Both the position numbers and the translations under genes were made by a program. A stretch of DNA of 64,000 nucleotides from an uncultured Candidatus Saccharibacteria bacterium (lineage in GTDB: Bacteria > Patescibacteriota > Saccharimonadia > Saccharimonadales > Saccharimonadaceae). The stretch lies in assembly GCA_943914775.1 (NCBI GenBank), contig CALUDH010000006.1, forward strand, positions 5,291 to 69,290, in the 5' to 3' direction. Below, piece by piece: positions 51,475 to 55,196 of this stretch (its first letter is position 1; each line of letters opens with the position of its first letter). Under the pieces are notes generated by a model, which saw nothing but the letters and a program-made list of their open reading frames with translations, was not told where the DNA came from and ran no database searches.

Positions 51475-51640
51475 TAAAACAAAGCAAACTATGAATTTGC
51501 TAAATGTCGATACGATTCATAAAAATAAACCGCTTAGATTATCCAGGTCTGAGCGGTTTATGATATTTTCGTTTGCATAATTTGGCCCACTTTTTATGTT
51601 ACCCCCCCACCTAACTCCAAAGCGTAACTCACTTAAGTGT

Positions 51641-51689
51641 ATGGCAGCATTACTTTATGATTCGGCTGGAATTACCTCTGTTTTTCCTA
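51641..51689. repeat. Left arm of a 49-bp near-perfect inverted repeat flanking the AT-rich helicase gene
   Basis: The reverse complement of 51641-51689 matches 54827-54875 at 47 of 49 positions. A degenerate match extends about 12 bp further outward. The arm overlaps the -35 region of the helicase promoter. Confidence 0.85.
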
Positions 51690-51714
51690 ACAATAACACG
51701 ATATAATTGTTATC

Positions 51715-54700
51715 ATGAACCACGCTAGCATTTTAAGTGAAATAGTTAAGACAATAAAAGAGCTTGATGAAAAACAAACACTATATATTCTCAAGGGATT
51801 TAATTTTATATCTGACCAGTTAGAGCAACTGGATTTCTTATTCCTAAAAGATGAAGTTGTTACAGAGACAAATTTTGACTCACAAAATAACCTTCGAAAG
51901 CTACTATCAGGCGATAAGGCGTTCTTTGCTTGGTATGAAGACCTAATTTTTCTTGATATAAATCAAAAGATTGGCGGTGTAAAGGACTTTACGAACTATA
52001 CAATCAAGATAATTGAAAACGATCTGTTTTTTAATTATTATCCAGACTTTAATTCTGTGAATGTAGGTGATAAATACTTAAAATACAACGCCGATACAGA
52101 CAATATTGTTCAGCTGTATTATGGCGATATTGCGATCGACAACAACCAAGCATTTGTCGTCTATAACGATGTATCCGACAAAGAGATAACAAAAATCAAA
52201 ATATCTGAATTATTACCGACAAACTTTGTTAGTGGTGATGGCGAAATTGTCGAAATGCCGGAGGAAAGCGATAATATCTCATTTGCAGTATTAGTTAAAG
52301 AGATTATCAGCAAAAATGTAACTGAAATAACGATTTTAAAAACAAGCGATAGTCAAGATGTAAAAATTAAAAACCTAACAAAACTACTTAAATCGTTAGG
52401 CGTTAAAATATCTGCACGCAAATATTCAACGTCAACTTACAAAGTTGATGATACCGATTACGACCAGTATGAAGCTATACTGAAGCGAAAGAATGACAAT
52501 TTTAAATTTAAAGACCTAAAAATATACAAGGACCCATATGAGGGCAATGAACTGATTAATATTAATCAATCAGTAATCGTAGATAAAATCGTCAAAAATG
52601 TTGAACTGGCACAAAGAGAAGAATCTTTCCGAGATATTTTTGTGACAGCCCCCACTGGCTCTGGTAAGTCTGTAATGTTTCAAATACCAGCAGTATATAT
52701 TGCTGAAAAATATGATTTACTGACAATAGTAGTCACTCCTTTGATAGGCTTAATGAATGATCAAGTAGTAAACATTAAGGCACTAACCGAAAAAGCGGCA
52801 ACCATTAATTCTGATTACACACCGATAGAAAAAGAGCAGACTCTAGAGAGAGTCAAAAGCGGCGAGGTGTCAATACTATATCTATCGCCAGAATCACTAC
52901 TTTCAAACACCGATATCACAAATCTTATTGGCGAACGCAAGATTGGTCTAGTAGTGGTTGACGAATCACACATTGTAGCGACTTGGGGCAAAAGTTTCCG
53001 TCCTGATTATTGGTACTTAGGTGATTTTATAGCCAAACTACGCAATAGCGAAAAGAGTGATCATCATTTTCCGATCGCTACTTTTACGGCAACATCAACA
53101 TTTGGCGGTGATGACAATATGTATTCCGATATTGTTGAATCACTAAAAATGACTGCAGAAAAGTTTATCGGTAATGTAAAGCGAGATGATATCGTGTTTG
53201 ATATTCGTCATCACACAAAAGACCACGCCTATAAAGAGGAAAAGCTTGAGACTGCCGCCAAAGAAATAAACAAATTACAAAAAACAAAAGATAAAACTCT
53301 TGTCTATGTACCATATACTAGCCATATTACTGATCTTATGGCAAAAATGGATGACCAGACTAAAGTTGGTAAGTATTATGGCGGAATGTCAGCGGGTGAA
53401 AAAAATGAAACTTTGGAAAAGATTAAAACTGGTGAAGAGAATATCATTCTAGCGACAAAAGCATTTGGTATGGGAATTGATATTGATGATATTAAGAATG
53501 TGTATCATTTTGCTCCAACTGGCAACATCGCCGATTATGTACAGGAGATCGGTCGTGCCGCTCGCAAAAATGGCATGACTGGCGTAGCGGCAACAGATTT
53601 TTATAAAGAAGATTTCCGCTATATAAATCAGTTATACGGTATGTCCAGTATTAAACACTGGCAAATTATAGCTGTTTTAGAAAAGATTTTTGACATCTAC
53701 CGCCGTAAGAATAAGCGTAACTTCCTTGTATCTCCTATGGAATTCTCATATATCTTTAACGATGTACCGCCACATGAAATTGACGCAAAATTAAAAACTG
53801 CCTTACTTATCATTAAAAAAGACTTTGAAATACAAAGTCGATCTAATTACATACCACTGATATTTAAGCCAAGGAGTATGTTTACTAATGGCTATTTCAT
53901 GGTCAATGATGAAATGATAGACACACTGAAGCGGTTTGGAGTATGGCAGTTCTTTAAGAAACTTAATTTACCTCGCAAAGTAGAAACTATAAGAGATGGC
54001 TTACTAACGACCATATATTCACATGGTGATACTTTTGTACTCGATTTTAAGAAGCTATGGGAAAATAAGTACAAAGATATGTCGTTCGCTAGTTTTAAGC
54101 ATAATTTCTTTTCTAATACATTAGACAGGGATTTTAAAGTAGGTGAAAAGCTAGTTGCAAGATCAATTATTCAAATCAATGGAGGCGACGTTAAGTTTAG
54201 TGAAATAAACAATAGATTAACTGCTACTATGAATAGTTTACAGGAAATTCTTGATGAACTTCGTCAAAATAATAAGCATTTTACTATCAAAGAATTAGCG
54301 AAGCGTATTCGTGAAAAGACTACCATTAAAAAGCCCTACATAGCCGACATGTTGGCACAATCAATCATTCATATACTAAATCGCGTGCCCATTAGTAATT
54401 TTATTCAAAGCCCATTTGCAACATATAACAGCCAGACTGATAAATGGAATATTCAAAATATGACTTATGAAACACGAATAAAACGAATAGTCGGCTCTGC
54501 TTATAGATCTCTGCCACCAGAATCAACACAGACTGTACGATTTACAGGTGCTGACTTAAAGAGCAATCTGGATCTTTTATTAGCGCAGCTTTTAGAAATA
54601 CTGGAGCTTGCAGACGTAAAAATATCTGCTGGCAATAATCCAGAATTCTTCATACGTGTCAACAGTCCTAGTGCTATTGAAAAAATAGTGCGTAATAAAT

Positions 54701-54861
54701 CATATACAAGTAAAACTGTTAGTCTGGTTGACTATAAGCATAAAGAATCATGCCGTCTTATGGAAAAATTCTTTACCGAATTAATAAGCGACGAGGATCG
54801 CTGGAATTTTATTGAACAATATTTTCTAGGAAAAACAGAGGTAATTCCAGCTGAATCATAA
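51715..54861 (+). CDS. RecQ-family DExH (SF2) helicase with large unrecognised N- and C-terminal regions, in an AT-rich island
   Basis: Motif I is TAPTGSGKS. Motif II is VVDESH. The RecQ-diagnostic block is ATWGKSFRPDY. The helicase-C region reads ILATKAFGMGIDI...HFAPTGNIADYVQEIGRAAR. The N-terminal ~300 aa and C-terminal ~400 aa have no recognised motifs. GC is about 33% against about 50% in the flanks. A TATAAT box at 51702-51707 lies 7 nt upstream of the ATG. Confidence 0.75.
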   Translation: MNHASILSEIVKTIKELDEKQTLYILKGFNFISDQLEQLDFLFLKDEVVTETNFDSQNNLRKLLSGDKAFFAWYEDLIFLDINQKIGGVKDFTNYTIKIIENDLFFNYYPDFNSVNVGDKYLKYNADTDNIVQLYYGDIAIDNNQAFVVYNDVSDKEITKIKISELLPTNFVSGDGEIVEMPEESDNISFAVLVKEIISKNVTEITILKTSDSQDVKIKNLTKLLKSLGVKISARKYSTSTYKVDDTDYDQYEAILKRKNDNFKFKDLKIYKDPYEGNELININQSVIVDKIVKNVELAQREESFRDIFVTAPTGSGKSVMFQIPAVYIAEKYDLLTIVVTPLIGLMNDQVVNIKALTEKAATINSDYTPIEKEQTLERVKSGEVSILYLSPESLLSNTDITNLIGERKIGLVVVDESHIVATWGKSFRPDYWYLGDFIAKLRNSEKSDHHFPIATFTATSTFGGDDNMYSDIVESLKMTAEKFIGNVKRDDIVFDIRHHTKDHAYKEEKLETAAKEINKLQKTKDKTLVYVPYTSHITDLMAKMDDQTKVGKYYGGMSAGEKNETLEKIKTGEENIILATKAFGMGIDIDDIKNVYHFAPTGNIADYVQEIGRAARKNGMTGVAATDFYKEDFRYINQLYGMSSIKHWQIIAVLEKIFDIYRRKNKRNFLVSPMEFSYIFNDVPPHEIDAKLKTALLIIKKDFEIQSRSNYIPLIFKPRSMFTNGYFMVNDEMIDTLKRFGVWQFFKKLNLPRKVETIRDGLLTTIYSHGDTFVLDFKKLWENKYKDMSFASFKHNFFSNTLDRDFKVGEKLVARSIIQINGGDVKFSEINNRLTATMNSLQEILDELRQNNKHFTIKELAKRIREKTTIKKPYIADMLAQSIIHILNRVPISNFIQSPFATYNSQTDKWNIQNMTYETRIKRIVGSAYRSLPPESTQTVRFTGADLKSNLDLLLAQLLEILELADVKISAGNNPEFFIRVNSPSAIEKIVRNKSYTSKTVSLVDYKHKESCRLMEKFFTELISDEDRWNFIEQYFLGKTEVIPAES

Positions 54862-54875
54862 AGTAATGCTGTCAT
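54827..54875. repeat. Right arm of the 49-bp inverted repeat; it overlaps the last 11 codons and the stop of the helicase gene
   Basis: TAGGAAAAACAGAGGTAATTCCAGCTGAATCATAAAGTAATGCTGTCAT matches the reverse complement of 51641-51689 with two mismatches. Confidence 0.85.
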
Positions 54876-55196
54876 GCATTCAAGTGGATTATGTTTTGGG
54901 GTTAGGTGGGATATGACATAAAAAGACATTTAAATAAAACAGATTTTTTATCTTTATAAAATTAAAAAATCAGCGAGGATAAAACAGAAAATCAAAAATC
55001 TGTTTTATTTGTATACCGTGCGATATAAGGCATGGCGTGCTAGGATAGTGCTGAAATAGGTTTAAGTAAAACCTAAAAAGTGAGCTAAATATTTGAAGGG
55101 GAGCAAAAAGGTATTTTTGGTTTTTTTATTCTCGGTTTCAAAAGTTCAACGAAGAAGTCGCCATTTCTGGCGACGGTTCCGTTTTAATCTTGTATG

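Follow-up and report, generated by a model that had tools for sequence, protein, structure and literature searches.

Islands that P4-type tyrosine integrases or large serine integrases bring to tRNA genes share a recognizable set of traits: they sit at the 3' end of the tRNA, differ from their surroundings in composition and are present in some strains and absent from others. The P2/P4 defense hotspots of Escherichia coli (PMC9122126) show in addition that a single slot can hold alternating defense-type cargo and is sometimes empty. We studied a locus with many of these traits in a human-associated Candidatus Saccharibacteria (TM7) bacterium. Within the window, by which we mean the whole stretch of 64,000 nucleotides analyzed, a gene for a large superfamily 2 (SF2) helicase lies on an AT-rich islet between a SulP/STAS transporter gene and tRNA-Gln. 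Saccharibacteria and other bacteria of the candidate phyla radiation have tiny genomes, and their mobile DNA and defenses are poorly charted; to our knowledge, they are mostly without CRISPR. Taken as a whole, the evidence leads us to read the locus, with a probability of roughly 0.6, as a horizontally acquired islet without an integrase, inserted as a discrete element by a recombinase at a tRNA-Gln hotspot and carrying a candidate defense helicase.

Insertion at the 3' end of tRNA-Gln in a strain-variable slot

For comparison we collected conspecific metagenome contigs, defined as those encoding exactly the methyltransferase and SulP proteins of the window. Two of them (L103 and L105) have an empty slot in which the native DNA upstream of SulP directly abuts the CCA end of tRNA-Gln, the junction reading ...GCATAATTTGGCTGGGTCGG... 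in both and the wider sequence across the site in L103 reading ...CGTTTGCATAATTTGGCTGGGTCGGCAGG.... Positions 51587-55196 of the window are therefore an insertion at the tRNA 3' end. BLAST alignment to the empty site breaks at 51586/51587 and 55196/55197 with an overlap of 4 nt, window position 51586 corresponding to L103 position 6853 and window position 55197 to L103 position 6856. The sequence TGGC forms a direct repeat at the two junctions, at 51583-51586 and 55197-55200, and is the reverse complement of GCCA, the discriminator base and CCA of the tRNA. The insertion point is the CCA end itself, 55197-55200, which reads TGGC on the plus strand. ARAGORN and Rfam agree on a tRNA-Gln(UUG) gene with an encoded CCA end at 55197, and comparison with a second island found in the same slot (variant B, below) yields identical boundaries. 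The islet was thus shown to have entered exactly at the GCCA-3' end of tRNA-Gln(UUG), leaving the tRNA intact. The features of the insertion site are as follows.

51587-55196, unstranded: inserted island of 3610 bp, carried by most conspecific contigs, missing in L103 and L105, and with another island in its place in L013 and L017
55197-55271, minus strand: tRNA-Gln(UUG), intact, with 100% identity between strains in which the slot is empty and strains in which it is occupied
51583-51586, unstranded: left-junction copy of TGGC, from the alignment with the empty site
51525-51561, unstranded: native terminator-like hairpin with 16 pairs and T-runs on both strands, present in the empty-site contig L103

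The DNA at 51475-51586 is native, as it is also found in the empty site. The hairpin at 51525-51561 accordingly is part of the flank and not of the island; ~25 nt separate it from the 3' end of tRNA-Gln when the site is empty, and the insertion has left it 3.6 kb from the tRNA. The original prediction, which described an AT-rich segment starting at 51480, had therefore included native DNA, the true left edge being 51587; its right end, at the 3' side of the minus-strand tRNA-Gln with the CCA end at 55197, was correct. That no duplicate of the tRNA 3' end could be found at the left boundary is true of longer repeats but misses the TGGC present at both junctions. The synteny comparison proposed at the time gives a direct answer, as the SulP side adjoins tRNA-Gln immediately in L103 and L105.

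The slot between SulP and tRNA-Gln was shown to be a strain-variable hotspot with four states: empty, occupied by the helicase islet, occupied by a type II restriction-modification island, and occupied by both in tandem. Most conspecific contigs carry the helicase, L103 and L105 are empty, and three contigs (L013, L017, and L018) hold a different insert of ~5.2 kb. Two features outside the window are needed here.

L013 8862-14084 (also in L017 and L018), unstranded: variant B island, inserted at the same point as window 51586/55197
L169 2980-3062, with the tRNA at 2905-2979, unstranded: replaced arm next to the tRNA, a mosaic recombination tract

Variant B lies between copies of a 7-nt direct repeat, TTGGCTG. 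Its genes specify a type II restriction enzyme (PADLOC REase_II, E 2e-50), an N6/N4 methyltransferase (MTase_II), a helix-turn-helix protein, and a DUF3892 protein, as well as a large serine recombinase (Resolvase/Zn_ribbon_recom) that is broken into three ORFs (open reading frames) beside the tRNA. In L160 (1-9192), the order runs SulP, helicase islet, TGGCTG, B-like island, TGGCTG, and tRNA-Gln, the B-like island being rearranged relative to L013. This tandem array shows stepwise accretion at the tRNA end and implies that the B-type element integrates there with or without the helicase islet.

Changes are also seen on the other side of the tRNA. In L105 (1-2475) and in L174 (beyond 6718), the DNA 5' of tRNA-Gln, on the side that continues from 55272 in the window, differs from ours, with a GDSL-lipase-like ORF and two small ORFs in place of the methyltransferase-phosphoketolase block; the tRNA is thus a breakpoint on both sides. 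Against the variant B strains, the flanks are 94.9% identical on the SulP side and 100% on the tRNA side. In L169, from a close relative with flanks 95.8% identical, a version resembling that of L187, a locus with a more distant helicase, has taken the place of the 70-83 nt beside the tRNA and of two tRNA bases. Recombination around the locus is evidently frequent.

Divergence between species showed the islet to be horizontally acquired, the helicase gene having been exchanged recently between Saccharibacteria species under purifying selection. Among the Candidatus Saccharibacteria metagenome-assembled genomes found by a genome scan with a helicase alignment, two have a helicase 100% identical to that of the window and DNA 96% identical over 16.5 kb, and both come from the species of the window or one very close to it. 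Three other Saccharibacteria species have helicases 92% identical in protein and 88-92% in DNA, and the DNA homology of these species to the window is limited to the cassette, ~51655-54867. The synonymous divergence (dS) of the helicase from the window is 0.57 in L019, 0.29 in L020, and 0.14 in the C-terminal half of L021, a half that is much nearer to the window than L019 is, while the ratio of nonsynonymous to synonymous divergence (dN/dS) is ~0.08-0.13. The orthologs of the flanking ATPase and tRNA-methyltransferase, on the other hand, have a protein identity of 52-71% and are saturated at synonymous sites (proportion of synonymous differences, pS, 0.75-0.79). The low dS of the helicase beside saturated core genes shows that the gene was transferred well after these species had separated, and a dN/dS of ~0.1 shows that the protein has been kept functional. 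The helicase has a GC content of ~0.35-0.36 in the species of L019, L020, and L021, whose genomes are at ~0.50. The proposal of horizontal acquisition at a tRNA 3' hotspot is in this way borne out by the empty site and by a helicase dS of 0.14-0.57 against saturated core genes. We also looked for relatives carrying an orthologous helicase of host-like composition at the same locus, and the helicases found beside tRNA-Gln in L019 and L021 were likewise AT-rich, with a GC of 0.35-0.36.

In composition, the islet stands well apart from the rest of the window. Its GC content is 0.346 compared with 0.469 in the remainder, and it lies ~5.8 SDs below the mean of the other windows of 3610 nt (mean 0.468, SD 0.021, minimum 0.402); the sliding-window profile has a trough with sharp edges at ~51.5-55.2 kb. 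The helicase ORF (51715-54861) has a GC of 0.347 compared with 0.476 +/- 0.031 in 41 other ORFs (z -4.2) and a GC at third codon positions of 0.305 compared with 0.463 +/- 0.053 (z -3.0). Its codons AAA, AAT, and ATA are 2-3 times more common than in eight core genes, and the 335-bp spacer between the gene and the tRNA (54862-55196) has a GC of 0.328. The codon bias and the AT-rich spacer had both been predicted, and the sliding-window and codon analysis suggested for checking them makes the helicase ORF an outlier among 42 ORFs; the size of the contrast had been overstated, being ~35% versus ~47% and not ~33% versus ~50%, a level that only the right flank reaches. Apart from ORFs that overlap it, the helicase is the single ORF of at least 100 aa in the island. 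On the left, the island is followed outward by genes for the SulP/STAS transporter and a P-type ATPase; on the right, beyond the tRNA, lie genes for an RrnaAD-type methyltransferase, phosphoketolase, and acetate kinase. A second, milder dip in GC (0.385-0.40) occurs at 40000-43000 of the window, where genes for a short-chain dehydrogenase, a Fur-family regulator, and thioredoxin are followed by UDG and DUF488 genes; no signs of a mobile element were seen within it.

Anatomy of the islet and its helicase

The helicase gene is bracketed by a 106-nt imperfect inverted repeat, 51591-51695 versus 54820-54925, with arms that are 84-88% complementary. The outer end of the left arm is a motif that we call M, CCACTTTTTATG, and the right arm stops 271 nt short of the right junction. 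The features inside the islet are as follows.

51715-54861, plus strand: gene for a 1048-aa SF2 helicase with a RecQ-like core at residues ~285-640
51591-51695, unstranded: left arm of the inverted repeat, in the upstream region of the helicase gene, starting 4 nt inside the left junction
54820-54925, unstranded: right arm of the inverted repeat, overlapping the end of the helicase gene (the stop codon and the 14 codons before it)
51702-51707, plus strand: TATAAT box, 7 nt ahead of the ATG, conserved in L019, L020, and L021
54926-55196, unstranded: noncoding tail of 271 nt, between the right arm and the tRNA
54932-55010, unstranded: long AT-rich hairpin with a 23-nt stem, in the tail
55070-55090, unstranded: inverted copy of motif M, matching 51580-51600
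55157-55174, minus strand: terminator-like hairpin, 22 nt past the tRNA end

The start codon of the helicase has no Shine-Dalgarno sequence, which together with the TATAAT box suggests a leaderless mRNA. The arms of the inverted repeat are most alike in their inner part: over the inner 52 nt, the left arm and the reverse complement of the right arm share 94% identity. This figure applies to the window, whereas the corresponding identity within other species is 63-76%; orthologous arms compared between species are 74-85% identical over the same stretch. An RNA structure was rejected as an explanation of the repeat, as the arms differ between species with no compensatory changes between them, high identity is found only in the window lineage, and no Rfam family matches the repeat or the island tail. 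The restriction of high arm identity to the window lineage speaks for recent duplication or gene conversion and not for selection on RNA pairing, and the repeat is a feature of the DNA, probably created by inverted duplication or gene conversion. Nor is it a dispersed repeat or miniature inverted-repeat transposable element: no further copies were found in the window or in 80 genome loci, and the metagenome matches to an 18-mer of the repeat were helicase cassettes or single chance-like matches. A blastx search of the noncoding ends of the island, including the 271-nt tail, against serine recombinases found no recombinase gene or remnant (E > 0.4). Compared with this picture, the original prediction was right about composition and the position of the tRNA, but the 106-nt inverted repeat had gone unnoticed, as had the junction repeat, the lack of an integrase, and the variability of the slot.

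The association with tRNA-Gln extends to other species. The helicases of L019 and L021 have their stop codon ~14 nt from the CCA end of a tRNA-Gln(UUG) that is syntenic with ours. The cassette follows tRNA-Gln(CUG) in L020 and L035 and tRNA-Gln(UUG) in L187, whose helicase is 84% identical and whose host has a GC of ~0.36. The last ~130 nt of the island are related to the DNA adjacent to tRNA-Gln in the helicase islands L020 and L187: the tRNA-proximal arms of the window and L020 share 55% gapless identity (z 5.9), those of L187 and L169 give a z of 5.2, and the arms of the helicase islands have a hairpin GTCGCC...GGCGAC in common. No such relation connects them with variant B or with the native DNA downstream in the empty site. 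Compared by eye, the distal end is seen again as well, TGGC being followed across the junction by CCAC in the window and by CCAAC in L187. Relative to the direction leading outward from the tRNA, the helicase is antisense in the window, L019, and L021 and sense in L020 and L187; the opposite orientations among species could be the outcome of an inversion between the flanking repeats. Two homologs linked to tRNA-Asn (L024 and L030) were considered as the same type of junction and set aside, being positioned past the terminator of the tRNA and not at its CCA end.

The protein has two RecA-like core domains with a RecQ-type fold, flanked by N-terminal (1-285) and C-terminal (640-1048) modules specific to its family. 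Judged by the curated cut-offs of NCBIfam TIGR00614 and TIGR01389, it falls short of RecQ membership, with 181.5 bits against a cut-off of 219.8 for recQ_fam and 207 bits against 640 for recQ. The best family match was to the PADLOC model PDLC01089, "C3a193, poss. alt. Cas3" (E 1.7e-160, model positions 41-982 of 983); with DpdF and PsyrT, the match is confined to the helicase core. AlphaFold2 models are confident, the whole protein being modeled with a pLDDT of 86.5 and a pTM of 0.82, and the C-terminal 409 aa with a pLDDT of 86. Searches of the N-terminal 285 and C-terminal 409 residues against Pfam, PHROGs, and PDB gave nothing beyond a weak winged-helix-like match, which was the one match of the C-terminal model to PDB, where none had E < 0.001. 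The searches run detected no RQC or HRDC domain, and Pfam is empty over 640-1048. Among 88 sequences, there are no invariant (Zn-binding) cysteines, and few polar residues of the N-terminal module are invariant. No transposase, recombinase, or nuclease motif was found in the helicase protein.

At least 428 clusters at 50% identity contain the C-terminal module, whose position in proteins of 1050-1230 aa is almost always unchanged, and the family is patchily distributed over Saccharibacteria, Streptococcus, Clostridia, and Bacillales. A phage origin was rejected, as no full-length homolog was found among 50,697 phage records and the PHROGs match is limited to the generic helicase core. Our literature searches returned no paper on this helicase family or on this locus. 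In two contigs (L012 and L104; variant A''), the helicase seemed to carry internal deletions (~window 53462-53516 and 54455-54587), but these are runs of 10 N introduced in scaffolding and were discarded as artifacts.

We surveyed the neighborhoods of homologs at 78 loci. Directly upstream of the homolog in 23 of these, from Bacillales, staphylococci, and lactobacilli, is a gene for a sigma-70-like protein with regions 2 and 4, related to the C-terminal part of MzaA (2e-40; L052-L097, e.g., L058 6723-7919). Directly downstream in 13, including loci of Streptococcaceae and two Saccharibacteria, is a gene for a NERD and UvrD-like protein, "RTasNERD-Hel" (9e-48; L028, L070, and others, e.g., L070 7505-9229). 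Distant homologs with either partner look like two-gene systems, apparently undescribed; both partners are absent at the window locus. Type I restriction-modification genes recur beside the homologs: a plasmid of Enterococcus faecium has the order HsdS, HsdR, sigma-70, and helicase, and a 58%-identical homolog adjoins a type I/ISP restriction-modification system and an AAA_15/21 ATPase. Large serine recombinases are found near homologs in L024 (adjacent), L038, L048/049, L059, L076, and L087. In the window, no cas genes occur among the neighbors of the helicase (SulP, tRNA-Gln, rRNA methyltransferase, and phosphoketolase), and no family of direct repeats resembling a CRISPR array was found in 50500-56500.

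Routes of entry and a possible defense role

As to how the islet arrived, we give about even odds to a discrete, nonautonomous element with conserved ends that was placed by site-specific recombination within the 4-nt core. We favor this explanation because the insertion is scarless, the ends of the island are conserved in different contexts, two tRNA-Gln genes have been used, and an island with a serine recombinase occupies the same site. The recombinase would have been supplied in trans or lost since, and the likeliest enzyme would be a large serine recombinase, as in variant B and beside the helicase homologs; the attP expected of it would read ...AAAAGTGG-GCCA-CATACAAG.... A number of observations weigh against the overall reading, this account included. 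The island encodes no recombinase and contains no blastx remnant of one, and the junction predicted for an excised circle, ...CTTGTATG-TGGC-CCACTTTTT..., is absent from the collected loci and from IMG/VR. The attP-like arms of the helicase islet and variant B are dissimilar, which makes a single recombinase for both unlikely. All conspecific contigs have the helicase in one orientation, so that nothing points to ongoing inversion there. The 4-nt core is short and fits microhomology-mediated joining as well, and the chromosomal flank ATTTGGC (51580-51586, also in the empty site) agrees in 6/7 positions with the inverted inner motif ATTTAGC (55084-55090), a likeness due either to chance or to a trace of a microhomology joint. 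Finally, four contigs from different samples (L009, L016, L102, and L108) share a TCA to TAA change at codon 996 (window 54700-54702), which removes the last 53 residues with several invariant positions among them and is probably a loss-of-function allele.

Some of these observations would be expected if the islet had instead entered by natural transformation and homology-facilitated illegitimate recombination, with one crossover anchored in tRNA-Gln and the other end joined at microhomology (TGGC or ATTTrGC), the M motif of the island pairing with the tRNA end of the recipient. Such a route needs no recombinase, in agreement with the missing integrase gene or remnant, and it could use the natural competence of Saccharibacteria (PMC10633639); the 6/7 match of flank and island motif and the mosaic nature of the locus (the replaced arm and tRNA of L169, the C-terminal half of L021, and flanks at 94.9% versus 100%) also fit. 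However, the insertion cost the recipient no DNA, and such perfect conservation is unusual for illegitimate joins; the same ends are found beside two tRNA-Gln genes that share no more than 16 nt of uninterrupted identity; and the ends recur beside the differing distal neighbors SulP, ATPase, and GSHPx. The data agree with either route; we hold transformation to be the less likely one, though the most serious competitor of site-specific placement. Far less probable is an autonomous, transposon-like cassette with terminal inverted repeats and a TGGC target duplication, in which the helicase itself performs insertion and inversion. The 106-nt inverted repeat around a single ORF that runs into its right arm, as in many insertion sequences, and the 4-nt junction repeat give the islet this appearance, the homology between species ends inside the repeat, and ~690 residues of the protein match no known fold. 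On the tRNA side, however, the repeats are not terminal, as the right arm ends 271 nt from the right junction, compared with 4 nt between the left arm and the left junction; the cassette is single copy, and the metagenome scan with the repeat 18-mer yielded only helicase cassettes linked to tRNA-Gln; in the protein, no motif of a transposase, recombinase, or nuclease was found, and its N-terminal part has few polar residues that are invariant; and the long repeat is lineage specific, being weak or absent around homologs of 84% and 52-55% identity. By the same token, we find it highly improbable that the islet represents a new type of self-mobilizing element, bounded by the inverted repeat and specific for the GCCA end of tRNA-Gln genes, whose helicase, with its two large domains matching no known fold, would take the place of a classical integrase or transposase as the mobility protein, catalyzing or directing insertion and flipping between the repeats. 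Hardly credible is a native, vertically inherited gene that is AT-rich by a constraint of its own, with the empty alleles as secondary deletions: the AT content of the gene exceeds that of its host in most lineages, and the gene is found at the corresponding tRNA-Gln, in synteny, in L019 and L021, but its dS of 0.14-0.57 beside saturated neighboring core genes, the scarless empty allele with another island integrated at the same nucleotide, and a cassette at a different tRNA-Gln gene in other species all contradict it.

For the cargo of the islet, our best guess, toward which we lean slightly, is that the helicase is an anti-phage or anti-mobile-DNA defense gene. The guess follows the logic of guilt by association, from the full-length match to the PADLOC model, from the neighbors of the homologs, from the patchy distribution of the family, and from the alternation of the islet with a restriction-modification island in the slot. 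It is weakened by the lack of a nuclease or other effector domain in the N- and C-terminal modules, and the C3a193 label on the PADLOC model is itself a conjecture, only a "poss. alt. Cas3." In such a role, the helicase would act as an ATP-driven DNA translocase or unwinder, and the family-specific N- and C-terminal modules would recognize foreign DNA or, where partners are present, recruit them.

Relation to known islands and helicases

The locus is a variable tRNA hotspot in Saccharibacteria resolved to the nucleotide, with its four states recovered from human metagenomes. Its cargo belongs to a family of ~1050-aa helicases shared with oral and gut Firmicutes, a candidate defense gene or barrier to DNA uptake. 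An islet joined by 4 nt and without an integrase may show how competent, recombinase-poor bacteria gain islands.

Among proteins, the helicase differs from the RecQ family (E. coli RecQ, RECQL5, WRN, and BLM) and from the defense-linked RecQ-like proteins DpdF and PsyrT in scoring below the NCBIfam cut-offs for recQ and recQ_fam, in having no conserved Zn-binding cysteines and no RQC or HRDC domain found by the searches run, and in that ~285 N-terminal and ~400 C-terminal residues are specific to its family. It does match the PADLOC C3a193 model over its full length, with no CRISPR array or cas genes nearby in the window. The islet resembles insertion sequences in having an inverted repeat around one ORF, the 3' end of that ORF within the right arm, and a 4-nt repeat, but it lacks a transposase, its right arm is internal (271 nt), it is single copy, and its repeat is lineage restricted. 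The likeness to tRNA-associated islands goes further: besides site, composition, and presence or absence between strains, the islet keeps the tRNA intact and brings a new terminator beside it, as those islands do. It is unlike them in having a single cargo gene and no integrase gene, and in its repeat, which is 4 nt long (7 nt in variant B) and not a 15-60 nt duplication of the tRNA 3' end. With the P2/P4 hotspots of E. coli, it shares the one slot with alternating defense-type cargo that is sometimes empty; the differences are a reduced-genome host, Saccharibacteria, and a helicase that is a candidate defense cargo. The islet belongs to a known kind, the tRNA-linked defense-hotspot islet, of which the inverted repeat, the 4-nt junction at the CCA end, and the Saccharibacteria host make it a useful rather than a surprising case.

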